Positions 17,084 through 64,000 of a DNA stretch of 64,000 nucleotides are shown here, piece after piece. The notes beneath the pieces were generated by a model that was not told the origin of the DNA, did not search any database, and was given only the letters and a program-made list of their open reading frames with translations. Made by a program: the position numbers and the translations under genes. The stretch spans positions 1-64,000 of the forward strand of contig QPGO01000050.1 in NCBI GenBank assembly GCA_008632985.1, in the 5' to 3' direction. Numbering within the stretch: the first letter of the stretch is position 1; each line of letters opens with the position of its first letter. The DNA comes from Psammoneis japonica (lineage: Eukaryota).

Positions 17084-19932
17084 ATGGCAGATCCACCTAT
17101 AGGTAATGGATCAGTCGAGAGCAATGCGAGCTTGGCCATGATGCTTCGAGAATGTGCCGATGCGATTGAACGAAACGAGTTGAGTCCCGTTGTTTATCAA
17201 ACGTGGGGAGCTCTTCATGCGTTTGTCAAGCAAAATGGCGGCGGAACCCAGTCGCGTGTCACCAAGACCACCACCAGACACATTCCAGCAACGCCACAGC
17301 CAGAATCGACTCCAGACACGTCAGCAGACAATGTCTTTTCAGCAGAGGCATCGGCTGATTTTGCTGAAGATAAACCGTTTGATGAAAGCAGTCCACCTCG
17401 GCAGACGACTCACTCATCTGAAAGCAACGACGCTACCAGTACAAATCACTTGGGAAGCAAGAGTAAGGACGTTTTTAGTAATTTAGGGGGCTTTTCGAAA
17501 AAGCTTGGAAAGCAGTTTGGCCTGCACCCGACGAAGCATCCTGCTTCGGAGTCTCAGAAACAAGCCACCTCGAAAAAGAATTCGGAACGATTCAAGGCTG
17601 ATTTGGCATCAGAAGTGGCAAGCGCAGCTGCCGACGAGTCAACAGACGCGGCTTCTGTTAAGAAACCATCTTCGTCAGACACCTTCCGAACGTCAGCGTC
17701 CACTACGAGCGGACCTTCAGCCACCAACAAGAAGAAGCCCTCCTTTCATCGGCCAACCAATCCCAATACAACCTTGATCGCCAATGGATGGGTGGAACAA
17801 CAACGCCGTTCCAAAATGAGATTCGCATGGAAGGAAGTATTGGCGAGTCTGGTCGAGGGCAGAACTCCACAAGAAGAAACGACTCTATGGATTCAACGAC
17901 AAATCACCAATGCACAGGGCAAGCCCGAACTGGAAGCGCTGCATCAAATTCCCATGAAGTGGTTGGAGTCGGTCGCGTTTGTGGACTTTTCGGCGGACAA
18001 TCGGTTTACTGTCAAGGTCTTTAACCTTGCCGAAGAATTTCAATTTCGTTGTGCGGATGCCGAAAGCGCTCAAAACTGGGTAATCACACTTCGTTCGGTC
18101 AGTGATATCGTCAAGAAGCAAAAGCCCGGCCAGCATGATGGCAATATTCGAGAGGTTGTGGGTAATCTCAATGATTGGGGAGAAGGTAGCACGGTTTCGA
18201 ACAGTCATACAGAACGATCAAGTCATCGCATGACCGTCAAGGAACTCCAAGCGATTGCTCATGGGGCTGGTTACAATACCAGCGGTATGGAACGAGCAGA
18301 GTTGGAGCGTCTCGTGACCAGTATCGCCATGCAAAGGACACCTTCGGTCGATGTGGAGGCAGAGCAACGACACAAACAAGAACAGGAACGGCACAGGTTG
18401 CAACAAGAGGAAGAGAGACGCAAACAACAAGAGGAGGAGCAGTCAGGAGGCAACCGCAGGATCCAGAACCGTCGCGTCCTAGGAGACCTATTTCCGAATT
18501 GCAGTCCATTGCTCATGCGGCGGGGTACAGTACAAGTGGTATGGAAAGAACCGAATTAGAAAGATTGGTAGCATCACTATCGGTGGACGAAACCGATACT
18601 TCGCCGCAACATCGACCTGATCCCGAGCCGTCTCATCCTCGAAAAACGATTTCAGAGTTGCAGGCAATCGCTCACGGTGCAGGCTACAACACGAGCGGAA
18701 TGGAGCGAGCCGAATTGGAGAGATTAGTAGCAAAGATCGATGCTGACGAAGCGAATCTTCAAAAACAAAAGGATGCTGCACTCGAGGCTCAACGACGTCG
18801 TCAACAACATCAAGAAGATATGCACCGAAAGCAGGAAGAGGAACGACAACGACGTGCGGCATTGGAAGCGGATCAAAAGAGAAGACAGGCGGAGGAGGAG
18901 CGACAAAGACGGGCGGCGTTGGAAGCAGAGCAACAGAGAAGACAAGCGGAAGAGGAGAGGAGGCGAGCAGCGGAGGCCGAGGATCGCAAGAGGCAAGAAG
19001 AACAGCGTAGATTGTTGGAGGAACACCAGAAGCGACAGGCTGCCGCCGCCGCCGCCGCAGCAGAGCAACAACGGAGACAGGAGGAAGAAATGAGAAGGAG
19101 GGTTGCAGAACAACAAGCTGCTGTCGAGAGACGTCAGAAAGAACAGGCGGAGGAACAACGAAAGAGACAAGAGTGGCAGAGAAGTCAATGGCAGGCACAG
19201 CAGGCCGCACAAGCAGCACAGCAACGTGCGGAATGGGAAAAGAAATGGCAGGAACAACAACGACAGCAGCAACAACAGTATGCGCAGCCCCAACCTGCAT
19301 ATCAGGGACAGCCACGACCAACACAGCAGCAACCACCGCCGTTCAACGCTGCACCGCCACCGCAGAACAAGGGTTATCGCCCGCCACCGCCTCAGGCACC
19401 TGGATACAAGCCTCCTCCCCCGCCTTCGGGTGGATACAATCCTCCACCAGCACCGCCACCTCCACCACAAAATCATCCTGCATCGCCAGCCGATATGAAG
19501 TACGCGAAAATGGCGGACCAATCAGATGATACCACGCAAGCCGCAATCACCAACATTAAGAGAAACCTCTTGTTGAATTGGGCCTTACAACCTCCCATGA
19601 ATCAGATACTTCGTCCAATTGATGCCTTGATTACTACCATTCATACCGTCTTTCCTCCGGCATTCGGGGTGGCTGGTCACGAGTACTTTAAAAAGTGGAC
19701 ACCTATTGCAAGGGACTCAATTGTTACCGGTCCGGCCATGGGAGGAGCTCCCGACGATGCCAAGTTGAAAAAGGCGGTTCGGAAACTCCGGTTCTTCTTG
19801 CATCCAGACAAGCTTCCCCGTGATCTCAATGACGAGCAATCGTTCATGTGTAAAATGCTTTGGGATGTGATTTCGGACGCGTGGGAGGAATTTCACAAGA
19901 AGAATGAAGAGTTGGGGTGGATTCATAACTGA
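17084..19932 (+). CDS. Auxilin-like protein: PH domain + 3 helical (SAP/HeH-like) repeats + coiled coil + Pro-rich linker + C-terminal J domain
   Basis: PH-like 'IANGWVEQQRRSKMRFAWK...FQFRCADAESAQNWVITLR'; three 'ELQxIAHxAGYxTSGMERxELERLV' repeats; J domain 'LKKAVRKLRFFLHPDKL...LWDVISDAWEEF'. One frameshift near 18440 joins ORFs 16964-18559 and 18499-19932. Confidence 0.8.
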
Positions 19933-20648
19933 GCGACACGCCTGAAGCAGTGCGGTTGTTCATACCGGTATGGTTGATACTGGTGAGATTTCTTATGTAC
20001 GTACGCTCTGCTAGAAAGTAGCAAAGCTCGACAATGTATCCAGGGTAGCAATCGAACTAGAGTCCAATTGCCTGTATTTCGCGAACCATCATCCAAGCTA
20101 CTGAAAAAACCTTATGCGCATCTACAGGCTTCCTCCACTCTTTAGTGTATGCTCATTCCTACTCTCTAGAGTAGATATTAGACGAGACAAAGAGATTCAA
20201 GACGTTTCGACGGGGAGGAAATTATGGTTACGATTCGTGTGCGTCGAAATATTCAAAGCAACCACGGCACAAGCATGACAGAGGAGGCTCAACGTATCGC
20301 ATCCACTCTGGAGGGAATGAACGTGACGCAAATTCGCCGCCACGCCAGGAAAAAAGCTAACACTCAGGAAAGAAGCCAGGCCGATTCTCTATGAAGACTA
20401 CAACTCGAACGACGAGAGTGACGAGTCGGCGACGTTTCCCACTATGAAGAAATCTATGCCATCTTTGTCAACACCGGTTCCTTGCGGACGAAAGACAATC
20501 TCTAACTTCAAATGACGAGAATGAAACGCGAGTCGCAAAAGTTCAAAGCTTCGGCACACTAATTCATTTATAGTCTGAAAAGGAATAGACAGTGCTTTTG
20601 ACAATGACAAGGATTGCCACAGTTTTTTTTAATTTCTGGAGAGCCTTC

Positions 20649-20981
20649 TGAATTCTATGATGATTCGGTGAGTTGGTCGGGACTTGCTGGTTCTTCACTT
20701 GGTTGCCCCACCATGGCGGATCAAGACATGGCACATGCCTCTGGTTAGACAGTGGAATTCTTCCGCTTGACTTCTCCTCCACAATGATGCAAAATCACAT
20801 TGAACTCTGTGACTTGGTGAGTTGGTCGTGACCTGCTGGTTCTTCAGTTGGTTGCCCCACCACAATGAACCCTGACATGGTGTGTACCTCTGATTGGGCT
20901 GCAGAGTTTCCCCCCTTGACAAATCAAATTGAACCCCATGACTCAGTGCATTGGTTGCAACCTGCTGGGTTCTTCAGCTGG
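20649..20981 (+). repeat. Three degenerate ~130-150-bp direct repeats
   Basis: The core 'gttggtcg..ac.tgctggttcttca.ttgg' occurs in copies beginning near 20649, 20801 and 20930; the third copy is partial. Confidence 0.8.
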
Positions 20982-21946
20982 CAAATGCCTCTGACTGGTC
21001 AGATGGCAGAGTTCTTTGCTGCTGGAACTGTGCAAGTGTGCCTCTTTGTGCAGATCATTTTGCAGCAGCCCATTGGCCCTTTTTGAATCTTTGCTTCACA
21101 AGCAAAAGACCACAAAATGAACCTGCCAGAGTCTTTGCCATTGCACGCCAACAAAGAAAAGGCTTTTCTTGTCCTTGAGAACTCATCAAGAAACTTGCCA
21201 TTCTTGTGCCTCTTCTTCTTCTTCTTCTTCTTCTTGCTCTTGTGACACAAATGCCTCACCACCACTTTTTTCCTCATTGAGCAATCTGCCCCAAGTTCTT
21301 GAAAGGTCATCTGAGTTCACTTTGTGAACTTGTTCTGTGAGATTTCAAATTGTCTCCACTGACTCGTGATTGACACATGTTCCCCTGGTGCAAAAATTGT
21401 CTTTTGCCCACAGAGCTCAAGTGCTTGGCTCTGGCAGCTGTTTCTTTTTCTCCTTTCTGATTTTTTGGCTCATCTTTTTGAGCAGAGCTGGCATTGCTTT
21501 CTTTCATTGGTGCTGCTCCACTCAATTTTTTGCAGAACTGTGAACTCTCAACATCTGCTTTTGCTTTCCAAGCAATTGCCAGTCTTTCTTTCTGCCTGGC
21601 CAGGAGAGCAAGGTCCTCAAGTGTGCTGCTCCTTTTTTGTTGTGGTTGGCTCTGACTTGTGAAGAACATCATTGAATTTTGTTTCCAAAAAAAGAAAATG
21701 TGGTGAAGGAAATGGCATGGTGCTCTGGTTTGTCCCATGCGCAACAACAAAAAGTTGATGCTTGCAAACATTTTTTCAACCAGGGCTCTGTTGACATCAA
21801 ACACAACAAATGCAAAAGGAAACATCATCTGTGATGTGTGCTTTCTTGTGCAACTCTGTTTCTCTGGGAGAACTTTTGCAACTTTCTGACCTTGTCACAA
21901 GGCATCTCTCAACACAAAAAATTTCCACACAGAGGTTTTTGTCTTT

Positions 21947-22448
21947 AACCCTTCAACCACTGGACTTGAGCAAATCTCCGCGGGTGGAGATTTGCTCCTT
22001 TACATCACAAATGCAGCAAAATGAGTGATTTCAGACATGAACAACATTTTGTTCGCGCGATTTTGTTTTGGAACGCGCACTCACCAAAAATCTGGGGGAG
22101 CCCTTTTTGTAATTTAGAAAGTTCAATGTCAACTTTTAACACCGGGTTTTTTGCAAGCTTCATCCATGGACAGAGAGGAACTAAATCTCAACCTGCAACA
22201 ATGCAGGTTGTCATGAATTGCTGTCACAAATGGAGCAATGATGCCACACCCTTGGAGCAAATCTCCGCCGGTGGAGATTTGCTCCCAACAAGTGAATGCA
22301 CGTGGCACACTTTACGTGGATTCTACGCTGCATGACATTTTCATGCTGTGTTCATTGTGTTGTCACAAAAGTGCATGACACATCACAAATCCTCAAGTGG
22401 AGCAAATCTCCACCCATGGAGATTTGCTCCCCTGGTGGTTGAAGGGTC
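21947..22448. repeat. Inverted repeat pair with three GAGCAAATCTCC-N6-GGAGATTTGCTC palindromes (possible transposon end)
   Basis: Palindromes at 21968-21997, ~22254-22285 and ~22399-22430. 'aacccttcaaccac' (21947) is the reverse complement of 'gtggttgaagggtc' (22435-22448) with one mismatch. Confidence 0.8.
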
Positions 22449-22504
22449 AAGAGATGAGAATTTGTGAAGAACAAGATGAGCTGGCAGCTTGGCTTGACAA
22501 TGAA

Positions 22505-22672
22505 GAGGGGCAACAGCTTCAAGATGGAAGAGGACAAGTTCAGCAGAGCAAAACTTTGCAAGGTTGCCCATGATCTGAGAAATGTGAAGAGAGGCAACAG
22601 CTTCAAGTGGATGGCAAGGACAAGTTCAGCAGAGTGACACTTTGCAAGGTTGCCCATGATCTGAGCAATGTG
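22505..22672 (+). repeat. ~85-bp tandem duplication
   Basis: 'ggcaacagcttcaag...aggacaagttcagcagag..a.actttgcaaggttgcccatgatctgag.aatgtg' occurs twice. Confidence 0.85.
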
Positions 22673-24521
22673 CACAACATCTGTGACAGGCTCTTCCCGT
22701 TCATGGCACCTGGTGAAAACAAAGTTGTCTTTGAGAGTCTTGTTGACAAAAGGAGCATCTTGAATCTCTGAAAGGGGCAGAGATGCATGGAGATGGTGAG
22801 CAGTTGTGTGCATTGGTGCACAACAGCAAGTGCCAGCAGAAGTCCATTCCACCATCCACCACATTGACCTTGGGAAGAACTTTTCCCCAGTTGGAGAGAA
22901 CAGTCATTGACCAGTGGATCTTGAGATGCTTTCTGCTGCAAGCATCATGTGGTCCACAGCCAACACATTGGGAGCACTGGGGCCATCGAGTGTCCTCTCC
23001 AGTGCATCCATTTTACATGTTCAGGGGATGCAAGTGGGGGAGAAGCTCCAAAAGGAAAAATGGGTTAAGCCTGAGTGGGATTGGTGCTCACATCAACAAT
23101 GCAAAACCTGTGGGAGACAGCTGCTCACACACAGAATGAATCATGAAAAGAGATGACCTTCAAGCAACCCTCAGCCAGAGCTCACAATGGACAAAAATGA
23201 ACAATGGAAAGGAAAAAATTGAAGTGAAAGACAGAAAGCAACAGTTTCCAACAACTTGAGGAGCTGGCTTTTTCGAGCAGCAAATGGAGCCAGGATGTGT
23301 CCACAGACTTTTAGAACATCATCCATGTCTGAAGTGAAATTGTTCAGCACATTGACCCTTGATGGCATTGGGTTGGCAAAGGCACTCAGAAGCCAAGCAG
23401 CAAAACAGACCACAATGATTGTCTGAGAATGCCTTTTTGACAACAGCCAGATGAAGAGTCAAGACTTGGTCAAAGATCATCACAGACATCCAGACCAAAC
23501 AGGAAAAATGTGGTCAACTGGTTTGGATGACTGATGAGCCACATGAGCTGGACTTGGGGGCTTCATCATTGAAACAACCAGTTTTCAAAAAAGCAACAAC
23601 ACAGGCCATTTCAAACAGCAAAGAGAGCCAGGATCATCATGTGCTTGCAGGACCTTCAGAAAATCATCCACAGTCAGTGCCAGCAGCAAGGTGCCAACCA
23701 TCACAAGATGCCAGAGACTGCAGCTGCATAAAAAAAACAATGAGAAAGTTGTTGAGTTGACAGCCTGATGATTGTGCCACAAACTGGTGCAAAATTGGAC
23801 CAAAGTTGTGCAGAAATGTGTTTGATTTCAGTGCTGAAACATCGACATCTGCAGTGTATGGCTTTGCTCTTGATGGGAAGATCAATCAACAACTCCTTCC
23901 ACCAGCGTCAGTCAGATTGCACTCTCCAGAACCCAATTTGCATTGTCAAGCAGCCCTTGCAATGATGGCCACATTGTTGCTTGATCCCAGCCATTGTTTG
24001 CTCTTCCTGTCGCCATGAATGCTTGTCAACTGACTTGACTTTGGCATCACACCCACAATTTGACAATTTCCAACATCAACCCAGACCACAGCATTGGTCA
24101 ATCTGCACTTCATTGAGTGCCTCTTTGAAGCTGACAATTGGCAACAAATGCACTCTCAAAATTTGTGTGGCATGCAACCAACAAAGCTCAAGAACCTCAC
24201 ATTTCTGACTCACATCCCAGCCAATCATCCCACAAGATCCACTTTTGCTTGAACTTTAGATCAGGACAAAATGATGGAGAACAGATCACCCACTCATCAA
24301 AGTTGTTTCTTGCTTCTAGCAAAGAGAAACTTGTCTCAAAAAGATGCTGCTGCAAATTTCTCCATTCTCCTCAAGACATTTTGCCGCCACAAAACTGCCC
24401 CATGTTTCTCTTGGAACTCCCAGCACATTGCTTTTTGAAGTTTCACTCACCTGCTGCCACTCAGAAATCAAACCTTTGAACAAGTCACTCTGGTGGAGTT
24501 TGGAAATTCGAGGTTGCTGCA

Positions 24522-24738
24522 GTTGGGGACAAGGCAACATGGGGCCACAACACCACAAGATCAACCTTCTCTCACAGTGCTGCCTCCTGCAGGGGTCCAC
24601 CAGAGACCACCAGCACCCTCAGCTTGTTGTTGTTTGTTTGGTTGACAAGTGCCATTGTGGGCCCACCTTTTGCTGTGAAGTTGGGAAGTTCAAGTTTGCA
24701 CCAACCTGTTGGGGACAAGGCAACATGGGGCCACAACA
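24522..24738 (+). repeat. 31-bp exact direct repeat
   Basis: gttggggacaaggcaacatggggccacaaca at 24522-24552 and 24708-24738. Confidence 0.85.
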
Positions 24739-27497
24739 GCACACAGTCTCTGGGGGCTGCTGCCCTGGCTCTTTGTGGGCACACATCAAGTGCTGCAGCC
24801 ACGCTGACCCAGTTGACCTCTTGCTTGACCAGCTCATTGTCTGTGATTCCACCTGCACAAGACCAACTCCACAACCTCTTCTGACCTTCTGCCTGCACCA
24901 AGTTTCAACCATGATGAGAGCACAACTTCAACAAAGGTTGTTGTGCATGTGTGTGTGTGTGTTGGTTGCAAAGATCAGCTGCCACAGCAGCCTTCCTGCA
25001 CAAACAAACAAACAAACAAACAAACAAGCCACGTGGGTCAGCAGAAATGTGAAAATTTTAATGTCAACAAGAGCCAGTTGAGATCACAAAAACTGACACA
25101 TCAGTCTTCTTCAAAAACAGATGCACTGCATCTGATTGAAACAATGTTCAACATGTGTCCAGCTTCCAAACAAAAATGAGAGCTCACAGGCAAAACACTT
25201 CAGCAATGAAGACCAGTGAAATGACTCGCTCAAGTTCACTCAAATGATTTGAAACTTTGAAAGCATGTGCAACGAAAGGCTTGAAAATGGAAAGGGCGCA
25301 TCACTGCCACACAAAGCAACACAAAAATGAAGGATGCACATCCACACAACAGCACACAAACAATGACAAACTGGCTGCCAACACAAAGAGAAGTCAACGG
25401 CAGCAAGTCAAAAGTGTGACACTGGAGCAGGCAGCTTGCAATGAACAACAAAGCAACACTTTTCTTTTGCACTCAACTCATTTCTTGAAACCAACACAAG
25501 TTGACAAAAACCGCCAAGAAGGATGAGAAACAAAGTGCCGCAACATTGTGCACAGGCAAGCAGAAACAGCAGCATTGTGCCACACTTGCCAAAGAAAACA
25601 TGCCAAACTGACAATTTCTTTGCTGTCTTCTGCCAGGGATTTCTGTCATTTCTCACAATGAAAAGCTGTCACAAAAACCAAATCTCTCTTTGAAACATGA
25701 AAAGGATTGGAGAACAGGACACATGATGCCACAGCACAGCTGAGAAAGAACACCAAGATGCAAAACAGACTGCAAGAGACAGCTGGGCCAACAATGGGAC
25801 AGCAGCTTGAAGAACAGAGGGATCAAAGCCAGGCAACAGAGTGACACAGTGTGAAATGAGAGCATGTGTCAAATGTCAAACATTGTCAGGGTAGAAAGCA
25901 ATCACTGCTGGATGCCAAAATCACAGGGCTCGCTCCAATTGACAAATGAGCAAATCAAATTGTTGGTGAACTCCAGCCAACAAATGACCACAATTGATTG
26001 GATCAACGTGGGTGGCTGTGTGTGCACAGAAATGAGCCATGCATTTCATTGATTGTGTTGTTCTTTCCTGTTTTGTCAACTTGTGTGACAACAGACACTC
26101 TGACACCTGCAATTGTTGTGCCATGATTCTTGAGTTCAAAACAAATCTTGTCAAGAGCCCACATGCTGTGAGACCAAGTTTTCTTGAGTCTGGTTTCCTG
26201 CTTTGCCAATGCAGCCAATTGTCAAAACTGATTTGTTCACAAGCAACAAAGGAGCACTTGGCAAGAACACAGGTGTCTTGTTGAGCAATTTTCAACTCTG
26301 AACAAGAGCACCAGCTGCACTTTCCAAACAAACAAATGCAGGGTGTCAGCACTGCTCCTGGTGTGCTGTGCTGCAAGTTCCCATCTGGAGCTGAAACTCT
26401 CATTTTGTTGGGTGCACCAGGCTGTGCAGGCAGTTTGCTGGGTGAGAAACTTCTGGACAATTTGTGTGGTTTTCTGTGAATTTCTGTGACAGATGCAACT
26501 GGCACTGCACAAGCAAATCGAGCTCAAAAATGAAAGCGATTTTTTCTTCATGTCTCTCATGTTGCAAATTGTCAATGTGGGTGTGGTGCTGTGCTGCTGT
26601 CCTCATGAACTTACTCACTCTCAAACCAACAGCCTGCCGAAAAGGCAAGAAGGGCGAAAGTGGGTTGGCTGGGCTTGTTTTGTGCCTTGCTCCACACAAC
26701 AACCTGGTTGACATTTTGAGTTTTGTTGCCATTTGTTGGGTCTTGCAGAGAGCTTTTTGACTTGCTGTGCATGGCATTTGAGAAGTTTCCTTCTCTCCCT
26801 CAGATGACATTCTTCACAGCCCTCAGCTCCGCTGACTTGATGCTGGCCACAAGCAAAAGTTGATGGTGCGCACATGATGGCTGGCACACTTTTCTTTGAA
26901 ATGTGTTGACTGAACTTTGAGTTGTCATGGATGGATGATGCCTTTGCTTCATTTGATGGTGGTGAGTTGCACAAACCCACTGATTTTTTGTCATGGACAA
27001 AAGAGCAATTTTGGGCTCAGCTTTGAGAGTGTCAACAATGACTGAGAAGAGCCCAAACAACAAGCACATGTTGCAGGTCCAATGTTTCAAAGCAGATGAG
27101 TCTTCAGATTGGCTGACTTGACTTTGGCTGCGGCCCTTTGTGGCCAGCACACATCTTTTTCTCCTAGAACAAGCATCTTGGAGCAATGATGGATCGGTCG
27201 ATCTTGCAGGGACCTCCATTGATGTTTGATTGCCAGGTGCCAGGGGATCGAGTGAGCCAGTCGTCGTCATCCTGTGCCACGTGGATGGAGACGAAAAACT
27301 GGCGCGCGGTCGATCGGTGCATGGTGAGTGGTGGGAGTGACGTGTTACAGTATGCGTGCGCGCTTTTGCGCTTTCTGCTCTCTCCCGCCCTCTGCCGCAC
27401 GATGTTGCCGTCAGCCATCAGTGTGTGTTGTTCTCTGATGAGACCTTCTGCTTTCGACACTCAACCGGTCTTCTTATTGCGTGCCGTAGCAACAAGG

Positions 27498-28463
27498 ATG
27501 AAGTCTCTCCATTTCGGTTGTAACCAGCCATGTCTGGTGGTATTGACACTGTTGATTGTGAGTGCGTCAAGCTTCGCACCAAGAGTTGCCTTCACAACTC
27601 CCAAAACCATTGAAAAGTCACCCACAACTTCTTTATGGCTGAAACGGAGAGGACGTCCGAGAGGTCCACTTCGGACTGTGGAAGTGAAACCCACAATGAA
27701 TGAAGAAATCACATACGATGAGCTGAGGGTTGTACTTGCCGATCCAAAGGGTGGGAAAGACGAAGCTCTCGGCATCATAACAAAAGCTGACGCTCTCGCC
27801 AAGGCGCAAGAGCTGGGTGGCTTGGACGTTATTTTGATCAATGAAAACTCGAGTCCACCTGTTTGCAAGATTGTGGATTACTCAAAATACCGTTACATGA
27901 AGGAGAAGAAGGCTAAAGAACTGAAAAAGGCTTCCAAGGCTTCTGAAGTGAAAGAAGTCAAAATGTCTTACAAAATCGATGTCCACGACTATGGTGTTAG
28001 GAAGAAGAATGCTTCGAAATTCATTAATCAAGGCAACCGTGTCAAGATCACAATTATGTTTCGCGGACGAGAAGTGCAGCACGACAAACTGGGATACGAA
28101 CTTATTGATAAGCTGGCACTCGATCTGGAAGATATTTGCAACAAAGAGGGACGTCCAGTACGCGAAGGACGGAACTTGTCTGTCATTTTGTCTCCTCGAC
28201 CAGAAGTATTAAAAGCCGTGAACGATGGGCGCCGTGCGGAAGAAAAAGCGAAAAAGAAGAAGCGAGAAGCGCGACTCAAAGAGCAAAAGCATTCCAAAGC
28301 GGAGCAGGTGGAGGATAACAGTGCTAGCCTTGACGATGGTATCAACCTCAACCAGGTCGCACTTGAAGAAAGTGCCTCGGATCTTGATAGCGACGAAGAC
28401 TTGGAATCATCCCTTGATAGCTTGTTGGGCGCTGATGGAGTCAAAGATGACCTTTTTAACTAG
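27498..28463 (+). CDS. infC: Translation initiation factor IF-3, plastid-targeted
   Basis: Presequence with 'SASSF'. IF3 motifs 'MNEEI...ELRV', 'PPVCKIVDYSKYRY', 'VKEVKMSYKIDVHDY', 'GNRVKITIMFRGRE'. Confidence 0.92.
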   Translation: MKSLHFGCNQPCLVVLTLLIVSASSFAPRVAFTTPKTIEKSPTTSLWLKRRGRPRGPLRTVEVKPTMNEEITYDELRVVLADPKGGKDEALGIITKADALAKAQELGGLDVILINENSSPPVCKIVDYSKYRYMKEKKAKELKKASKASEVKEVKMSYKIDVHDYGVRKKNASKFINQGNRVKITIMFRGREVQHDKLGYELIDKLALDLEDICNKEGRPVREGRNLSVILSPRPEVLKAVNDGRRAEEKAKKKKREARLKEQKHSKAEQVEDNSASLDDGINLNQVALEESASDLDSDEDLESSLDSLLGADGVKDDLFN

Positions 28464-34269: not shown

Positions 34270-34399
34270 CTGCGATCATCACCAACGACCAACGACGACA
34301 AATTCGCGAGCTCCAGGCAGACGAGCTCTGCAAATCTTTGTGAGTATTTTTATCCCTCATGAATGTTTGTTTTCATTGGAATTTGCAGATCTTTATGAG

Positions 34400-35450
34400 C
34401 ACTTTCGCCACTCCTCTGCCGTGTGTCACAGCTTTCTCGTGCCATTTTCTTTTTCCCATTGCACTCACTTTTGCGCTCTTTTCATCGACTGCTCACTCTG
34501 CTCATTCCTTGTCATCAACCAAAGTCTTGCCAAGAACATGTGCCACCACTGTCACACCACAATGACAGCCCTGAAGAAAGAAAGAGGATGACTGCTTGGT
34601 CACGACAACAACCACAAGTGTGGCCCCCTCATCTGATGGCCAACTTCTGCTGCCACACCTTGGCATGCAATGCTGCTGCATTTTGGGGTGGGAAGATCAA
34701 AGCAACAGCAACAACATGAGATTCCCAAAGTTGTTGAGTGGTCACTGCACCACAAAGAACACACTTTCTTTTCAGTGCACAGAGAGTCAGCCGCGCGAGA
34801 TTTTTTTGTGGCTTTGGCACAAAGAACATGTTGTGTGCACGATGTCTCTCCACAAAAACAATGTCAGAGACCCAGCAGGTGCAGCTGGTTGAATGCACCA
34901 GAGGAAAACACCAACAAAAAACATGGTTTCCTTTGTGCTGCATGGGTGGTGGTCATGGGATCAGCACTCAACAAGCTGGCACACAGATCCTTTGGTTGAG
35001 TGCAGGAGCAGCAGCTGCTGCCACCTCAAGCAGCCTGAGGCACTTGACAGTGGCGCACCTTTTTCTCATGAAGGCAGGTGCCAGTGCCCCATGTTGCTGA
35101 TGTGACAGAAACCTCATTTGCAGCATTGGCCAACAATGTGAGCCGCTTCTTGGCGGGGCCTCAATGGCTGCAAGATGCTGACAAGCTGAGCAAGCAGCTG
35201 CAGCTTCCTGTGCAAAGCCATGCACAGTCAGTCAAAGACAAAGGTGCTGCAAATGGACTCCAGGCCAGAGAGCAACATTAAATTTGTGTCCCACCCTCCA
35301 AACTCAGCTGGCAATGCCCAGCCACTGACTTTAGTTGCACAAGAGTTCTGGGGCAACTTTGACACACACAAAATGGAGACAACACATTGCTCATGAACAA
35401 AAAATGAGTGCCCTCAAGACTTGGAAAGTTGCTCATTTTTCTTTGAACAG
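34400..35450. other. CpG- and TpA-depleted hypermutated domain 2 (~1 kb)
   Basis: Only about two TA in ~1 kb (TTAA ~35279, TTAG ~35332). Few CG apart from a CCGCGCG patch at ~34791. Confidence 0.85.
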
Positions 35451-35745
35451 CTCGTCATTTTGGGAACGAACACTTTAAGCAAAGGGAAGCCGTTTGTCTG
35501 CGGCTTCGATAATTCCTCCTCACGATTAGCGTTCCCAAGGCACCACGTCCGAGCCGGTCGGAACATAACAGATTTGTAACGCGGGATAAAGTTATGGATG
35601 ACAAATGTTAGCTACACAATGTTTCTATTATTATAATACGGTCTATGGTGGCAGCATCTCGCCAATGCAAGCTCGCACGGCTGAAGTCAAAATCGTTTCA
35701 CGCGGAAGTGTCGCGCAAAACTCAATCTCTGCGATATCAAATCAT

Positions 35746-38468: not shown

Positions 38469-38766
38469 TGTTGACTGCTTTTGTTTCTGAGCTTATTGAT
38501 ATTATCGACGGTAGATCCGAGCTGCAGTAATGTTCCTAGCTAATGCGATAGATCTGGTCCGGTCGTTATTACTATCGGCCATCGGAAGGCGTCCGTGTTG
38601 CCTTCTGACACCATCATGGCCGCGACATGCTGAATGCGCTCTGCCGTTCGTGCGAGCTCGCGCAACGTCGGAGGGAAGATTGGCATTCCGAATTTTCTGC
38701 GTTGTTCTGCGTTCTGCGGCGCTGTAATTCTAACTTCCAACTACCGGCGAAACTTGTACTGTAACC

Positions 38767-40164
38767 ATGGATGACTCGTCGTCTTCTTTGTCCTTATCAG
38801 ACGAAGCTCTATCTGATATTCAAGTTGGTGATAGTCGCTTCCTGGGATTCGTCGAGCATGTCGACACTGAAGTCGAGGCGCATTCGTATCAGCAGTTTCT
38901 GAGAAAGGAATTCCCCGATGCTTCCCATTACGCGTATTGTTGGGTCCTCCCAACCCAACACCACGAAGGATCCGATGAAGATGGCGAACCAAAGGGGTCG
39001 ACTGGTTCGTTTTTGCTTCAAGAGCTCAAGTCAAGTATGGAAAACAACAATAGCAAAAGGAGCGGGCTAGTTCTGGTGGTGGTGCGATATTTTGGAGAGT
39101 TACTGTTAGGTGTCACGTGCGGTAGATTGTCTCAGTGCTATTCATGGGCGGCTCGACTCGCTTTGCATCGATTCTGGAATGATCTAGATGCCCCTCTGAT
39201 TTATGAGTATCCCGATACCAGCAAAAATCTGTATGGTTTGGGAGCTGGAGATTCTGAAGTCGTGTTGAATGTCGTGTCAGCCCTTGAAAGCGACAAGGAG
39301 GAATCGATTAGCCTCCTCACAAACGTATTGAAGGAAGTGGAGTTTGGAGGCTTTAAGGGATCAAAAGGCGAAGTGCTGCCGAGATTGCAGAATTTACAAG
39401 CCAACGTGGCTTCCGGATCCATCCCAGTTTATCGATATCCTGGCAACTATACAGGAGACGAATGGGAGACGTACAGTTGGAGCCCGACTTGCTGGAACAT
39501 CAAAAAGGCAGTAGAGGAAGCCTTGTTTGTCAAACAAGAAATGAATCACTGTGTTGTGAATCATTATCGAGATGGTAACGATTTCATCCAGCACCACAGT
39601 GACAAAGACTTGGATTTGAATCCACAAGGTGTCATCGTCTCAGTGAGTTTGGGTGACGTCCGAATGTTGGAGTTGAAACGCAGACAAGATCCTCATGACA
39701 TTACTCGTCTTGAGCTACCCCATGGCTCCATGTTGGTGTTGGGACCAAAGACCAACAAACAGTTTACTCATTCAATTCTAACGAAACCAGACAGCGACAA
39801 ACCCCGAGTCAGTCTGACGCTGCGAAACGTGACCACGTTTATGGATGTCAAAACGCAGCGACTGTTCGGTCAAGGTATTTCAGCAAAGTCCGCAAGAGAT
39901 GTTCAGGAGTTGGTTGAAAGAGAAAAGTTGTTGTGCCGAGTGGCTGGGTTTTGCTGCGCAACAACAGTGCTCTATCTTGTGGCGTCATCACGCGGACCCA
40001 CTACGAGAACAACAAAGTTCAATCTGACCTTGGTATGGATGCTTGGCACAGAAGGCCTTTCCCGCTCATTCCGATATGTTCGACACCAATGGTGCAAAGG
40101 AATGGAAGAACGGTCGGCGCGAGACTTCTTCTCAAAGGCATCCACCAGCGGAACAAAGTACTAG
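38767..40164 (+). CDS. IMPACT/YigZ (UPF0029) domain + AlkB-like 2OG-Fe(II) dioxygenase fusion with C-terminal hydrophobic segments
   Basis: N-terminus: 'SRFLG', 'ASHYAYCW', 'DEDGEPKGSTG', 'VVVRYFGELLLG'. C-terminal half: 'NHCVVNHYRDGNDFIQHHSD', 'IVSVSLG', 'LPHGSMLVLG', 'HSI', 'RVSLTLR'. Confidence 0.85.
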   Translation: MDDSSSSLSLSDEALSDIQVGDSRFLGFVEHVDTEVEAHSYQQFLRKEFPDASHYAYCWVLPTQHHEGSDEDGEPKGSTGSFLLQELKSSMENNNSKRSGLVLVVVRYFGELLLGVTCGRLSQCYSWAARLALHRFWNDLDAPLIYEYPDTSKNLYGLGAGDSEVVLNVVSALESDKEESISLLTNVLKEVEFGGFKGSKGEVLPRLQNLQANVASGSIPVYRYPGNYTGDEWETYSWSPTCWNIKKAVEEALFVKQEMNHCVVNHYRDGNDFIQHHSDKDLDLNPQGVIVSVSLGDVRMLELKRRQDPHDITRLELPHGSMLVLGPKTNKQFTHSILTKPDSDKPRVSLTLRNVTTFMDVKTQRLFGQGISAKSARDVQELVEREKLLCRVAGFCCATTVLYLVASSRGPTTRTTKFNLTLVWMLGTEGLSRSFRYVRHQWCKGMEERSARDFFSKASTSGTKY

Positions 40165-55218: not shown

Positions 55219-55629
55219 TTTAGACTTGAAGACGGGAAAAATGAAACGCTAAGCTTTGTTGACGGAAACGAAAAGTGATACCAAATAATCTTCACGATCA
55301 AAAACGAGGGCAGATCCGAGACCGAAAAGTCTCAACTGGACATCCACCGCGTGATTGATGGTAGGCTATTGCAAAAAATGTCAATGTGGGACTTTCCAAA
55401 ATAACAAAATGTTTTTATTTAAGAACCATAAATATTTGTGCAAAGATATTAATACAAATATAACAAGCCCTTCTTATCGGAGACACATTTATTATAACAC
55501 ACCACTATCAAAAATTAGAATAGACACCAATCCCGTAGATGTCTTTGCGATGCTCCAAATAATGGTCGATTTTAGACGGCTTTCAGCCGTGATGAACGAT
55601 TGTTTATGCAAGGGGTTTATGAAACGGTG

Positions 55630-58600
55630 GTTTTGAGAGTGAAGTGACAAACCTCCAGTTTGCAGGGCCGAGTGAGGAGCTCTCAACATCCTCTGAGCAA
55701 AGAGTTGGTTTTGGGGCAATGGCAGGTGTGTGAAACTTTGAAGTCTCGATCAAGTGCTTGGGTCGTCGCTCAGAGACAAGCTGCGCTGGTGCTCCTGGCT
55801 GTGTGCCTCAAGAGACAAAACAAAAGATGTCAAATGCTGATGCAGGAAAAAAGTTGGCTGATGCAGCTTGAGCAATGAATTTTTTGTGCTTCTGCAGCAC
55901 CGCTTCATGCACAACAATCAACCATCATGAATGGCAGCTGCCAGAGGTGCATCATCAAGGGTTCTTGGTGTGGTTGTCAAAAATCCCTGGCAATTGGCAT
56001 GTGCTGGGAGAACTCTGTTGTCGACATCCACATGGCAGCACCAGCAACTTTGAAGAAGCTTTCATGCTGGGCACAATGGTGTGTGTTTGCAATTTAAAGA
56101 GATGTCAAACACAGCTCGCACACAACATTGTGAATGTGTGTGTTGACGTTGGAAGCATGGTGGCTGCACAACATTCCCATGTCAAGTTTTTGGATCTTGA
56201 GATGTTGTTGCAACATCAAAACATGTGCTCAGCTGCAAGTCATTGCACATTAAAGCCCAAGTTGCACACAAGCAACTGCGCCACTTCTCAAGCTGGCTCT
56301 TGCTTGAATGTCATGTTGCTCAAGTTCCACAAACATTTTTTTCATTTTGGCAGCACACATCAAACACAATGGAGCAGAAGCTGAGATGCAAAGTTGACTC
56401 AGCTCATTTGGCAGAAATTCCAAGTGCTTTTTTGATGCCATTGCTTGCACGCTGTCCTCCTGCAATGCTGGTGTGCAGCCACATCTCACACTCCTGATTG
56501 CAACTGGTCAATGTCACACTTTGAAAAGAGCCATTTGTCAACAAAGGGCAACAATCAGAGCTCAAGCAATTGCAAACACTTGGCTCTTCTGAGCTGCCAC
56601 AGCTCTTGTGGGCAGCCAAGTTTTTCAAGATTTGGAGCTTCAAGGCAGTGAGCACACCATCTTGCTGAGCTGCTTCTGCTCCAGGCAGAGTGGACAAGCT
56701 TTCAAACTGGCCTCCCCAAGATGTTGCACTGCAACAAAGAACCAGAGGAAGAAGAGAGCACATGATGGAGCTGCTTTGCCACTGCTTTTTCAGCAAAGAC
56801 ACTCTGAACAAGTGCTGCTGATGTGACACAATTTGTGAAAATGCAGTGTGTTGCACTTGCCCCCTGAGTTGGTCACACCTGAAAATCATTGAGACACAGC
56901 CAATTTTCTGAATGCATTGCATGCTTCCATGCACACTTCTGTCAAAACATGACAGCACATCCTGGCAGCTGGTGGTGCATGACCACAGCTGACTTGTGGA
57001 GTGCTTTTCTTTGGCTTCATTCTTGGATGCATTGCTGCAGCAACTTCTTTGTCACCCAGTCTCTGCAAGACAAGCCCAAAAGCTGTTGACCTTGTTTTCT
57101 GATGGAAGCTGCGGCATGATCTTTCTCTGGCAAGAGACTTGTTCCTTTTGTTTCATGTTTCTGGCCAAACTTCTAAAATGGCCAATCTTCAACCAGCTTT
57201 TCTGTTCCAAAACTCCAGTGTGTTGCAATGCCAGGCACTTTGTCCACAATGCAAAAGGCATTTCTTTGCATCCTCTGCTGCACTGCCATGCTTTGAGCTT
57301 GTCTCATGTCATGCACTTGCAGCATCAGCAAGGGAAGTGGACCACAGCCATGCAAAAAAATTGGCACACTCAGAGAGGCAAACATGTGAAAGTCCAAAGC
57401 AGGGGCACCTCACACAGCTGCCTTGCTTTGAGGTCAGGGATGCGCAGGGGTGAGGATTGAAATTTTTCATGGGCCACAGATTTCCCTCACACTTCACTGT
57501 GTTGTTCTGACCTCCCCAGGAACACCCCCAAACACTTCTGCATTTGTCAAATCCTTGTTGGGGCTGTTGAGCCACTGTGACAGCTGCACATTTGAAGCTT
57601 CAAATGCACCATTCATCAGCCTGTGCCCTGTTGTTGGGTTGAAATTGCTGCCAATTTTTGCTGAAACATGATGTCTCTCATGGGGGATGAGTGGCACCTT
57701 CTGGGAACCTCAGACATGTGGCACATTTGACAGGCCATTTGCACATCTGCAGTTGCCAAGGAAGGAGCCAAACACCATGCATGGTCATGAAGTCATGACT
57801 TGTCTGTGCACTTTGTTGTGTCTCATAAAATGGACAAAGTTTGACCCATTGCCAGAATTTTAGTCTTGGAACATGCAAGCATTTGGTGCAATGCATCCAG
57901 ATTTTTCTCAAAAACATTGCACACCTGCAAACATCATCTGCCTTCACCCCTGTGGATCCACCCTCAAGGGCACATGCAGGAACATCCAAAACCTTGTGTC
58001 TGTCAATGCCATTCTCCAATTAGCTGAGTGTGGTCAATGCCAGCAAACAAAGACACAGAAGAACACCTTGTGTTGCAAAGCATCAAAAAAAGGTGAGCAG
58101 CAAGAGGAAACTCTGCCCCCCTCAAGTGTGAGTTGGCATGACTGCTTGAAATGAGAGTCAAGGGAAGTGACCACAGCTTGGTGAAAACACATGAGAGCAC
58201 TGTCATTTGCACTTCATTTCTCCAGGTCTCCATCATGGCTGCACTGAACAAACTTTGGAAAAGTGGGCAGATGACAAAGGATTTTGTGTCAACAAATGAT
58301 GTGAAAGTGACATTTTCCCACAAGCGTTAGAATGTCTTGAACAAGGGGGGGGCAAACAATTGCTTTGGAGGCAACTCAAATCAAACATTGATGAGTGCCC
58401 CACCCCACATGCAGATGTGCACACAGATGCCAACAAGACAAGTGCCAATGGTTGCACTTCCTCATCCAACAAGATGTGCTGCCCTGACCAAAAAGCAAAC
58501 AACTTGGAGCTTGAAGAAGAGCTCTTTTGGTGGTTGTCCAATGTGCTGAAGAACATGTTGGTTTGTTGAGTGGCAAGGGGGGGCAGGTTTGTGGACTCAA

Positions 58601-61600
58601 GGAGCACAGCTTGTGGCAACTTTAATGCAAAAGCACAACATTGAAGCATGTGACAGGCATGTGGTGTGTGTGAGGGTGCATGTCTTGGACACTTGAGCAA
58701 TCATCTCCAAAACAGTGGTCGGAGAGCTGTCTTTGAACACGGTGCAATGCACAGCTGGGGTTGTTTTTAAAATTGGTGTTTCGCTCCTTGAGTTCTTTTG
58801 GCAGGTGCAAAGAAGTGGGCTTTGGCTGACTTGGCAGCACAGAGAAAGCAGAGTTCTCAGACTTGGCACTGAGGAGGAGGGCAAACATGGTTTGCAGCAT
58901 GGGGGCCAGCAAAGTGGCACATTGGCGCAAACCTGTGGGGGGGCATGTGGCATCAGGATGATCTGCTGATTTAGCAGCTGCCACAGAAGACAGCACCCAC
59001 ATTTTGTCCACACAGCATCAAGGCCACAAATGTCATTTGGCTTGATGACATGCACCGCACTTGACTTCTGGCAGCAAAATTGCACACGGAGCTCATCAAG
59101 ACAAAACAGGCACATTCTTAGAGGGCAGGACATGCAGCATTGCTGCACATGAGTTTCTTTGAGAAGCTCAGTTTTCTGACAGCAGAGCACAGCAGCCCCC
59201 CACCACAGGATTTGGCAAAAGGCATGCCACTTGGGTGCACTGGCCCTGCAAGTCTGGCGGATCAAGCTGGAAGGTCATGAGCTTTGGCATCAGGGAAGGA
59301 AGGGTCATTGGCATGTTGTCAATGAGACCATGGTCTTTCAGAACAGTGGTGTGTCAATTTTGAGGCAGCCACCAATGTCACCTCATTTGTCAGAGATGTG
59401 GGTGCACCCACTCAAATCTTTGGCATGTGCTGGTTGATCTTGTCATCTGGTGGGGGGTCACACACAGGTTGGGCCATTGTGTTTTGGTGTGCACACAAAA
59501 TCAAGCAATGGTGGGTGAACGCTCATTGCATGTTGGCTGCTTGTTCAAACTGGTGTTTGCATGTGCAGCAAGAGCACAAACCAGGTGCAATCAGCATCTT
59601 TGCCACTGAGTGTGGTTTTCAGTGTTTCAGTGCAGCATTTGTTGTGCAGCCCAAATCACTGCCAAGGAAGAAGTTGATGCCCTTTGGCAGCTCTGCAAGA
59701 GAAAACCTCTTGGCACCACAGCATGTTCTTGGCAAGCCAGTGCACAAAACCAGCTTGTTGTTCAAAGTTTTGCTTAAAAAGGACAGATGACAGCAGCCCA
59801 TTGGAGAGTGCCAGAAAAAGAAATTGATTGCGTCATTGTCTTGCTGCTGCCCACACCAACTCCTCTGACCACCCACATTCCCCAACACACAAAAGGGCAG
59901 CATGGACAATTTGAGCACTGTTTGGCACATTGTCGTGAAACAATGCCTGCCACATGCTGCAGTTCCAGCAAGCTGCAACAGTGCCCAGTTGAACAAGCAA
60001 GCCTGGTCACACTGCATGGGACAAGCTGCCAAAAACAAAGAACATGCTGCAGAAAAACTGAGCTCAGCAGGAGTCTCCAAGAAAGATGCAGTGCTTGAAA
60101 GGATGAAAAAATGCACTTCCTGGGACAAACATCTAAAGGAAAGTCCAACAAGGACAACAATGGTCAGGAGAGAAAATGCCTTGACACTGGCACACAATGA
60201 ATGTGCTGGAAAGTTGTGCTGAGCCAGAGTGACAAATGCAAAACCAGCATCAAGCGGCAGTGCATCAAGGTGTGTCCAATTGAGAGCACTCTGAGGCCCC
60301 TCTTTGGGATGCCAGGTGACAACCTTTGAGAAATGAAAGCCAGCTGCAAGAATGCTTGGAATGAAAAAGTTGGCAAGAAGCAAGATGACAAAACCTGCCC
60401 ATTGTTGTCTCACAAATGTGCCCAGATGTGCAGAATTGAGCTTGAATTTTGCACTGAAAGGCTGGTGCAAAAGGAGCTGAAACCATGCGGAATTTCACTT
60501 AGAGAATGCACTTCAATCTGGAATGAAAATCAAAGAGATTTGACACCATGGCATTGCCAAACCCACCAAATGCAGGCACAACAAAGCATCCCTTCAAAAC
60601 CCTTGATGTTTTGTTGTTGGCACAACTGCCTGACACTCCAACAGGCCCGGCAGAGAGCCGCGCCCACAAGGGACAATTTCTTGGGTGCTGATGTGAAATT
60701 GTGCCCATGAGAAGAGAGTTCTTGTGCAAGAGCATGGAGATCAACACATGGCTTGCTTTTTTTCATTTGTGTCCACCCTGCTGATTGAGCCAGCTTTTTC
60801 ACTGAAATTTTCTCACTTTGAATGTGGGAACATGGGGGGGTGCTTGTGCTTGACAGACTGCCACCATGCTGAAGGCAGAATGACAGTCTTGCCCTTTGGC
60901 ACATCAGCATTTTCAACAATGTGCCAGTGTTTTCCACAAGTGTGGTCTTGTTTTCTTTCACCATGGCCTTCTTGAGCTCACAAGCACTGCACTTGCAGAA
61001 AGGAGCTTGAACATGCAAAGAGTGCCCAGGTTGTCAAAGGCTTTCATGCTGTGCAGAGTGGCACATCCTCCAACTGGCTGCATGCAGAAAAATGTCTGAA
61101 ACACCATGCCATCAAAACAAAATCACATCATTGTGGCCAATGCCATTGTGAAGGGGTGGCACACGTGGATGAAAAAACCTCTTCTGGGGATCAAACAGAG
61201 TGTGTGTGCCTTTTCTTTCAAATTGAAGCTGTTGCAGACAGTGCTGCTGGAACCCAGAGCTGCTGTGCTGATGCAGTCAAAAGTTCTGGAGCTGGCATGA
61301 CTGGTGTGGAATCTTGCAGATCTTCTGGAAGACCTGCAGCTAGAAAGATGCAAAGTGCAGCATCTTCTAAAGGCAAAGTCAGGAAGCAGAAGATCTGTGG
61401 GAGAGGGAGAATCACACTTCTCTTGTTCTCTTGCAGAAACCCAAAAGTTGTTCAACAAGAGGCCCAAGTTTGTCATTGCACAGGTGTGTTGTCTTCTGTT
61501 GCATCATGCTTTTGCTTTGGGATCAGAGCCAAGGATGCATGCACCATGTGCTCCAACATCTCCACTGGAGAAACACTGGTCTCATGTCCAATGAATCAAT

Positions 61601-64000
61601 CAACAAACTGACAAAACAACTTTGTGACCTTTAACTGCATGTGAAGAACTTGCAGGATGATGAGGAGCACATCACATGGCAACCTCCACCAAGGCCCACA
61701 GAGGCACATCAGCCAACTTGGCAGCAGGAGGAGCATCAAGAGTTCACCAAACAACTTTCCTGAATGACAACTTCAGGGCAAGTGACAGAGAGTGCAAGTT
61801 GCAAGCACAGCCAAGGTTGTCTTTTGGAAGAGAGGCAAGTGACCCAAGCCAACTGTTGTGACACAGCAACTGAGACAATTGTGAAGATGGAGTGCCTGCT
61901 TGCTGACAACAGATTGTCACTCCAACAAGCCTCTCTCACAACTTCTTTTGCTGCCTGTGCACATCAGAGAACTGGCAACTGGCATGTCAAGCCCAAGCCC
62001 TGCACTGTCACAAGCTCCCAAGAGGCAGCTGAATTGACAAGCCACCAACTTGCAGAGTGTCAGTCAGCGACCCCAAGGTGAGGTGGAAAAAACAAGAACA
62101 GATGGCATGACACAGCTGAATTTGTGGGTGTGTGCCCAGACCTCAAGGCCACCACAGCATGCAACATGTCATTGCCAACAAGGACACATTCACCAAGACA
62201 ACAAGGACAACCATTGCTGAGCATGTGGGGTGCACCAAGTGTGCTGGTGCAGGAGAGCTGTGCATGGGCATGGCAGAGCCAAGGCTCCCAGCCCTCACAC
62301 TCCACCTGCTGGCCCCACAACCAACCCTTTGGAGGCCATGATTGAGCAATGGAAACTGGCCTGCTGAGCCTGCCATGACAGTGCAAAGTGGAGACATGCC
62401 AGCACCTCAAGGGATTTTGCTCTGGCACTGGGGCAATGCTCCCAGACTGCAAGGAACAGGGTGGAGGCCGCACATCAAGATTGGCCTGTGGTGAATGCAG
62501 CCTCTGATGTGACAGAGCTGCTGGCTGCAATCAGGGCCTGCATGGCTCAATGCCAGACTTTGCACTGCCACCCAGTGTGCATCATCATCAAGGCCAAGTT
62601 GGCTTCTTGCTCTTCAAGCAGGGAAGGCACACATCCACCAGAGATGGCTGTTTGATTTGATGCCTGCAACTGCAACAACAGCTCATTGTGACTTGAGTGT
62701 CCCCAGCTCTTGAAGATGCCTGAAATGTTGCCAATGAGTGCAACAAGACGGCTGACACCCAAAAACACTTTTTCATTGGGATGGAGAAACAATGCTTGCT
62801 CCCACCACTTTGTGCCTCAAAACAGCACAGCCCATGTCACGGGGAGAAGAAAGAAACACATCAAAACATTTAAAATGATGTTTTCAGACAGACAAAGCTG
62901 AGCCAGACCCTGATGGTCTGCATTGGAGGGGGGGAGAGGTCCAGCAGCGCAGTCACCAGCAACACTGGAACAAATTTCATTGATCTCACCCAAGAGCTTC
63001 TTTCCCATCAGCTGCACAGAACAGGCCATGCAGAGTGACCCCAGCTCTGGACAAAGAGCCAACCTTTTGGCCAGAGATGTGAAGAAGTTGCTGGGCACAA
63101 GTCAAAGCAAAAGCCACATGAAAGTCAAGGTAAAAAATGCTGAGCACTGACAAATGGTCTTGCACTCTGCAAGCAACAGTGCATGGAAATCCCTTCCAGT
63201 GTCCCCCAGTGAAATTTTCCATGTGCCCAATCCACAGAAAGAGCAGAAATGCTGGAAAACAAAGGAAATGAAATTTGGGTGATGCCTCTCCCAACACTGC
63301 TGTGCGGAGTGACTCAAAGACCAGTGGTGTCATTGAAATGACACCAACAATGTCCTCAGGGGATGACCGCAGCCATGGCATGTTGGAGCCGTCCCAAGCT
63401 TTTCCCATCATGATGTCACTCCAGCCCCCAACAAAGTGCTCTGTTTCATTCTGGTTTTCATCTTGAGCTGTTTCTGTTGACTGTGATGTGACTTGGGCTG
63501 CAGGTGGCTTTCTCTCATGACTTGCTCCTTGTTTGGCTGAGTCACCACACTTGAGGAGAGAGGAGTCATCATGTGTCACATGTTTGCTCAAACAACATGG
63601 CAAGTCGCCAGAGCCACAAGGAGACATCAGCACAAATGAAGGCATCAGAGAAAGCACAATCCCAGGGATGGAGCTGTGCCATGCATGGGTTTGTTGCACC
63701 ACTTGCACATGGTGTTGAGCACAAAATGCAAAGATGCATGATGCACATGGTGGCAGGAGCTTTGTGTCTGTGCAAGGGATTTTAGAGGCAGTGCAAAACA
63801 TTTGAGTCAGAATGTTTTGATGTTTGGCACTAAAAAGGGGCTGCATTTTCTGCTGAACACAAAACCTTCAAGCGACAATGACACACATTGTTGTTTTGTG
63901 GAATTCCGCTGGACACAAAACAATCATTTCTTAACAAAAATCACGTGTTGGATTTCACACCCATGCAAGCCATCAAGCAAGCTTGCAAGGATGCTGTGTG
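55630..64000. other. CpG- and TpA-depleted hypermutated domain 3 (continues past the window end)
   Basis: Only about 20-25 TA by eye in 55800-64000 and few CG, with TG/CA strongly enriched. ORFs are nearly Tyr-free; e.g. 59619-60470 has no Tyr in 283 aa. Confidence 0.92.

Follow-up and report, generated by a model that had tools for sequence, protein, structure and literature searches.

TpA loss runs on average ahead of CpG loss at the graded borders of depleted blocks in a diatom genome

The window analysed here, bases 1-64,000 of contig C43 of the diatom Psammoneis japonica (genome 91 Mb, 597 contigs), contains three blocks in which CG stands at 0.10x, TA at 0.07x, and CA and TG at 1.63x their background frequencies; in such blocks of the genome nearly all TA and most CG steps now read TG or CA. 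This raises the question of whether the two dinucleotides are lost through one process or two, and of what sets the borders of their loss. A first-pass annotation had proposed that at all five edges TpA loss extends about 50-170 bp beyond CpG loss, through a separate TA mutator working in tracts that spill past a methylated core by one nucleosome or one repair patch. The geometry of such edges constrains how TpA hypermutation is targeted, and it was studied both in the window (Table 1) and in a sample of 862 kb that comprises the window, the remainder of C43 and stretches of C1, C10 and C27 (4 contigs).

Table 1. Blocks, edges and the bounding gene in the window
Feature	Position	Strand	Characteristics
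Domain 1, out to the limits of TpA depletion	20660..27345	.	fragments of several repeat families inside
Domain 1 core, CpG and TpA both lost	20830..27190	.	base composition; C83 paralogue
Domain 1, left graded edge	20510..20828	.	within repeat family; CG 29/kb in 20658-20828
Domain 1, right halo	27195..27345	.	151 bp, 13 CG (86/kb), 0 TA; the clearest edge of the five
Translation initiation factor IF-3 gene	27498..28463	+	intact, N-terminal extension; bounds the domain 1 right halo
Domain 2, left margin	34396..34487	.	5 CG, 0 TA in 92 bp; not significant by itself
Domain 2 core	34490..35450	.	composition
Domain 2, right margin	35453..35509	.	1 TA in 57 bp (p = 0.33); CA+TG 105/kb, not raised
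Domain 3, left graded edge	55620..55785	.	0 TA, CG intermediate 36/kb, CA+TG 175/kb
Domain 3 core	55790..64000	.	runs on to about C43:69,720; ends in 540-bp TA-only margin

At the left edge of domain 1 the last dense TA lies at 20656 and CG continues up to 20827. Comparison with paralogues, which are about 65-75% identical so that polarity is approximate, indicates that sites with TA in the paralogues read CA/TG from about 20510-20620 with TAs persisting to 20656, and that shared CGs are intact to 20666, partly missing from about 20670-20710 onward and for the most part absent from 20785. The left edge of domain 3 is similar, with the last TA at 55618 and CG up to 55784; the paralogue search of the genome for this edge returned the window only. 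The intermediate CG density of these two edges shows that they are gradients rather than steps. At the right edge of domain 1, CG resumes at 27195 and TA at 27346, and the intervening halo, in which 6 TA would be expected, shows CA+TG at 179/kb. A genome search gave one 53-bp paralogue of this edge on C83, relative to which CG has become CA/TG up to 27187 and is retained at 27195, confirming the position of the CG edge. About 150 bp separate the end of the halo from the downstream start codon of the IF-3 gene, whose named best homologues are diatom proteins and whose product is likely to be plastid-targeted, as predicted from its N-terminal extension. In domain 2, for which the genome search found no second copy besides the window itself, the last TA on the left is at 34394 with CG up to 34486, and on the right CG is back at 35453 and TA at 35510; no evidence of a halo was seen in the right margin. 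The edge coordinates given by the first-pass annotation are all present in the sequence, but it overlooked the TTAA at 35476 and single TAs at 20746, 20885 and 27165.

Comparing the last TA with the last CG at an edge is biased towards positive offsets, because TA is rarer than CG outside the blocks and CG commoner than TA inside them: per simulated coincident edge the probability of an apparent offset of at least 50 bp is 0.26-0.56, depending on the gap rule. Step change-points fitted with local rates place the offsets at the left and right edges of domain 1, the left and right edges of domain 2 and the left edge of domain 3 at +9, +145, -61, -116 and -22 (only the right edge of domain 1 reaching p about 0.04), and with fixed rates at -111, +188, +74, -9 and +123. 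When the five edges are pooled, a zero offset scores no more than 0.2 log-likelihood units below the optimum. An offset of 50-170 bp at all five is therefore not upheld, as the pooled edges are not separable from zero and the right edge of domain 1 alone is clear.

Domain 1 has further features of its own. Its left edge is spanned by a degraded tandem array (20,650-21,040) with three copies of a roughly 140-bp unit. Several paralogues in this repeat family likewise occupy domain edges, so that the element may help to set the border. At 20,620, the sole difference in a 2,002-base contig from a sequencing run is a T, giving TA where the assembly has CA, and a paralogue likewise has TA, though this concerns one site only. 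An element with internal palindromic repeats at 21,947-22,450, which keeps more CG and TA (34 and 18/kb), matches C43:308,226-308,700 and many contigs of the same sequencing run, and is likely to be a younger MITE-like insertion.

Across the 862 kb, three states describe the sequence better than two by 1530 log units. The background state covers 57% of the sequence (CG 56/kb, TA 41/kb), the core state 27% (CG 8/kb, TA 2.4/kb) and a TA-only state 16% (CG 42/kb, TA 5.8/kb, mean length 1.3 kb); the reciprocal state with low CG and normal TA accounts for less than 0.3% of the sequence in this model. TA-only domains reach kilobase sizes, with 35 of at least 1 kb and the longest measuring 9.9 kb. 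Five of these 35, each 3-5 kb long, lie 5.9-14.3 kb from any CpG-depleted core, and hence cannot be spill from such a core. Surviving CGs in the cores of all contigs are enriched in CGC/GCG (0.56 versus 0.40 in the background), indicating that CpG decay has a context bias of its own. A coding stretch of the window (18,841-19,260) is TA-poor (2 TA/kb) with normal CA+TG (138/kb), showing that composition by itself can mimic a short TA-only state.

To measure the offset itself we collected all edges at which at least 800 bp of background meet at least 800 bp of core with no more than 700 bp between them (n = 60, 4 contigs); 34 edges between background and long TA-only domains were excluded, which makes the estimate conservative. 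TA loss lies further out than CG loss at 43 of the 60, with a median of 78 bp versus 8 +/- 9 under the null; the null gave a mean of 33 positive edges, and its maximum in 60 simulations was also 43. Individually, 14 edges have z > 2 and one has z < -2. When profiles are anchored on the CG change-point, TA falls to 20/kb at 50-100 bp outside against a null of 35 +/- 3, and CA+TG outside the edge rises to 167/kb from about 143; when they are anchored on the TA change-point, CG stands at 28/kb at 50-100 bp inside against a null of 15 +/- 3. Among the TAs that survive outside the CG edge, the share in the resistant contexts TTAA/TTAG/CTAA increases from 0.13 to 0.22 (OR 1.41, p = 0.043). A fit with graded edges puts the logistic scale at 80 bp for CG and at 45 bp for TA, with TA loss lying on average about 60 bp further out (bootstrap 95% 20-100; 5 of 1000 resamples at or below zero). 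By contig the best offsets are 40, 20, 140 and 20 bp, and C1 and C27 taken singly are compatible with zero. The outward displacement is therefore an average property, seen at 43 of 60 edges and amounting to about 60 bp, and not the universal one first described; within the 862 kb, the change-point comparison of boundaries that had been proposed as a check yields a systematic outward bias with no fixed length.

The form of the edges was compared through models scored against coincident steps. With a fixed offset the gain peaks at 19 log units, at 75 bp, and turns into losses of 13.8 and 27.6 at 150 bp and 170 bp, whereas a variable two-step offset gains 43-45; mirror models are worse than no offset. 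Models in which both losses share one taper gain 70-79 log units, and a free descriptive fit gains 75. A symmetric taper without any offset already gains 56-61 units, to which the offset itself adds 8-17. In all four taper shapes the fitted TA:CG rate ratio is 2-3, a ratio of 10 being about 20 log units worse.

Duplicated segments allow the substitutions to be seen directly. At C43:222,820 a tandem duplicate straddles an edge: 8 of 8 TA are changed inside, and in the next 380 bp outside 9 of 16 TA are lost compared with 1 of 19 CG, establishing true TA>TG/CA substitutions outside the CG edge. Thirteen non-overlapping pairs were chosen with one copy in background and the other in a domain: at TA, 424 sites are lost, 64 kept and 4 reversed, and at CG, 265 are lost, 408 kept and 70 reversed. 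In the pair C43:93,956-97,155 versus 107,145-110,321 (90.6% identity), 85 of 115 TA are lost with CG changes numbering 17 versus 18, and a third copy agrees with the background copy at the TA sites. In young duplicates, then, TA is gone before CG, and inside TA-only domains CG loss increases with background divergence, that is with duplicate age (rho 0.84). The young duplicates imply a TA:CG loss ratio of about 10 or more, and the three youngest suggest a TA rate at least about 50-120-fold over background. Contigs of the same sample held too few allelic differences to polarise changes.

The spectrum of these changes is narrow. Per strand, A>G in TA-only copies reaches 0.41 after T (368/901) as against 0.067 after A, 0.084 after C and 0.049 after G, the corresponding background-pair values being 0.087, 0.055, 0.070 and 0.042, and comparison of background with TA-only duplicates revealed no transversion excess. 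The base following TA also matters, with change rates of 0.57 for C, 0.42 for T, 0.32 for G and 0.20 for A (TAC > TAT > TAG > TAA). Changes at CG in duplicates and paralogues are CG>TG/CA transitions. Taken together, the duplicates, the transitions confined to TpA and the offset across 60 edges support the earlier suggestion of a distinct TA mutator whose reach exceeds that of CpG loss.

The account we favour, with confidence a little better than even, is that a fast, position-targeted TpA mutator and a slower CpG decay share one graded border, at which TA is changed earlier and further out. The blocks would be silenced and CG-methylated, and exposure at their borders would taper or creep over some 100-300 bp. 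The faster TA process would then saturate further down the taper, leaving the TA front outside the CG front, with the slower decay acting on presumably methylated CpG in the same silenced blocks. The short halo might accordingly form the lower extreme of a size continuum reaching up to the 10-kb TA-only domains, which may represent recently recruited or weakly methylated DNA. The offset itself is modest, and is partly expected once two processes of unequal speed share a border. Three results sit uneasily with this account. The edge fits want a rate ratio of 2-3 where the young duplicates indicate about 10 or more, so that one exposure of constant ratio cannot account for everything; the mismatch could stem from pooling of edges of unlike width, from CG loss setting in late, or from another mark that sets the TA footprint. 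The halo at the right of domain 1, moreover, combines full CG density with absence of TA and resembles two separate steps rather than a taper. Finally, a symmetric taper with no offset at all already delivers 56-61 of the 70-79 log units.

As the possible causes of this mismatch are not separable, a low but real chance remains with a reading in which the TpA mutator follows a broader mark, such as small-RNA targeting or methylation of H3K9/H3K27, with CpG decay confined to a narrower 5mC zone nested within it. That halo would fit such an arrangement, as would the gain of the variable two-step model and the profile of 32 edges between background and long TA-only domains, where TA drops sharply from 40 to 5/kb within 100 bp and CG merely drifts from 57 to 43-52, the anchor at these edges being partly TA-defined. 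In P. tricornutum, moreover, CG methylation overlaps regions of H3K27me3/H3K9me (PMC9998398). Yet graded single-border models fit better (70-79 versus 45 log units), and the rise of CG loss with duplicate age in TA-only domains is what a slower clock operating in situ would give. The proposal that methyl-CpG lesions trigger error-prone repair patches that mutate TA to about one nucleosome beyond the methylated core appears improbable. A mean positive offset of the order of 50-100 bp agrees with it, and faithful T:G repair would keep CG while TA mutates, so that CG retention alone is compatible; but a fixed 150-170 bp fits worse than no offset, and changes display no strand coordination up to 800 bp (212 of 451 of the same polarity versus 225 +/- 10 expected, 15 pairs) in a test that is blind to patches with about one change each. 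Nor is there an effect of CpG proximity, kept (53) and lost (186) TAs being equally distant from CpG (p = 0.78). Polymerase eta has a broader WA spectrum that includes ApA and transversions; here ApA>ApG is 0.067 versus 0.055 in the background, against 0.41 at TpA, and the excess of transversions is absent. With the TA-only domains remote from any core added to this, the fixed-patch version of the repair model is already largely refuted, and the idea of a one-nucleosome spill from methyl-CpG lesions finds no backing. The TA mutator may still be recruited by a methylation or heterochromatin reader. In sum, the data argue for an independent, faster and position-tied process and against a by-product of CpG-lesion repair.

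It is quite unlikely that the offset is an artefact of sparse events read by eye together with TA-poor promoter or coding flanks, even though the naive last-TA/last-CG statistic is biased positive, the window's five edges by themselves do not exclude zero, C1 and C27 singly lend no support, and 13 of 124 control upstream regions contain a TA-free run of at least 150 bp. Upstream of these 124 long background frames, all far from domains, TA stands at 43-50/kb, and in 3' flanks (n = 126 frames) at 45-57/kb, so that flanks are not TA-poor. Offsets are positive at 19 of 24 edges beside 5' ends and 9 of 11 beside 3' ends, and more weakly at 15 of 25 edges without a nearby long frame; the mirror models and the actual substitutions displayed by duplicates likewise speak against an artefact. 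Promoter composition as a general cause, which had been named as a possible explanation, is ruled out by the control flanks and by the presence of offsets at both 5' and 3' ends.

On the chemistry, the TpA mutator is probably an adenine deaminase acting on DNA, a candidate suggested by the substitution pattern. Since TpA reads identically on both strands, sequence cannot distinguish T>C from A>G; adenine deamination is favoured on the pure transitions, and the preference for TAC resembles that of TadA-type deaminases, which is a lead only. The same self-complementarity leaves room for a modified thymine, such as an oxidised T pairing with G, with the border formed as in the shared-taper account. 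This we consider very unlikely indeed, given that genes of the adenosine deaminase family are present in the genome; a TET/JBP search found no match, its positive control being silent as well. Genome searches for deaminase families returned 9, 5 and 4 matches, none of which is singled out. A second ADAT1/ADAR-like deaminase gene (C79:344,558-345,390), present besides the ADAT1-like gene on C40, is conserved across diatoms; being common to many of them, it does not single out this lineage. No genome match was found for an AAG-type glycosylase (PF02245), for which the control matched in 4 of 14, and endonuclease V is present. The genome has 27 matches to C5-methyltransferases, and several C5 DNA-methyltransferase copies, some with stops, lie inside TA-only domains (C301, C297). 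Outside the blocks, the window carries an open frame at 38,734-40,161 (+) with a UPF0029 domain and an AlkB-type 2OG-Fe(II) oxygenase domain. Among 55 long open frames from domains, two had a Pfam match (a DDE_3 transposase and TSP_3), and none of 14 domain open frames in the window reached the Pfam cut-off.

More tentatively, and short of an even chance, a DNA adenine deaminase guided by silent chromatin may have edited about two-fifths of the genome, the TA-only halos and domains being its advancing front, where A-to-G editing marks newly silenced DNA before CpG decay sets in. If this were so, the TA/CG offset would both time and map the spread of heterochromatin, and could be read from sequence alone.

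Several known systems share parts of this pattern. As in the RIP of ascomycetes, dinucleotide-specific transitions occur in repeat-rich blocks and leak into flanks. RIP, which converts C>T at CpA, creates TpA, whereas here TpA is destroyed and CpA gained; RIP mutates both copies of a duplicate, in contrast to the one copy changed and the other spared here (424 versus 4), and being triggered by homology it differs from a setting in which a single-copy domain, domain 2, is present. In the second phase of somatic hypermutation, MSH2/6 and polymerase eta act at WA motifs, and the spread of A:T mutations around C lesions follows the logic of the repair-patch model; the blocks described here differ in showing no ApA rise of note, no excess of transversions and no strand-coordinated tracts. 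Among diatoms, P. tricornutum has DNMT5-dependent CG methylation of transposon islands that overlaps H3K9/H3K27 methylation, and diatom DNMT4 is related to RID (PMC9998398). The CG>TG/CA changes in island-like blocks of an otherwise normal genome resemble such islands, but decay of 5mC at CpG, as described there, leaves the TA loss unexplained, and the blocks here would be methylated by analogy. The accessible portion of PMC12344493 contains nothing on TpA, and the literature search, whose reach lay outside most subscription papers and preprint supplements, found no report of diatom TpA erasure or of a TA/CG edge offset; the edge offset measurements are new here. Eight metagenome loci of at least 3 kb with IF-3 68-74% identical (76 kb; drawn from 24 close matches among 80 loci), few and gene-centred, held no TA-erased block.

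The closest parallel is the case of Bigelowiella natans, in which, among 231 mutations in two viral inserts, 230 are A>G/T>C and all of these fall at TpA, at about 1000-fold over background and in some lines only, with an ADAT2 homologue proposed as an unproven candidate (main text of bioRxiv 10.64898/2026.01.13.699255). The terms CpG, boundary, flank and diatom do not appear in that main text. TpA-targeted hypermutation thus rests on one preprint in an unrelated alga, without an account of enzyme or targeting. In that text the targets are integrated NCLDV and virophage DNA, and here they are blocks of a diatom genome; erasure here is near-complete (about 2-6 TA/kb over 43% of the 862 kb) as against a rho of 0.45 there, and nested CpG loss, graded edges and the TAC > TAT > TAG > TAA preference set the diatom apart. 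Both, on the evidence of that main text, feature regional, almost pure TpA>TpG/CpA transitions and TpA-depleted, CpA/TpG-enriched clusters, and in both single-copy DNA can be a target. By this analogy the diatom pattern appears to be of the same kind as the hypermutation of Bigelowiella natans, which is relevant to the question of a natural DNA adenine editor serving genome defence in eukaryotes.
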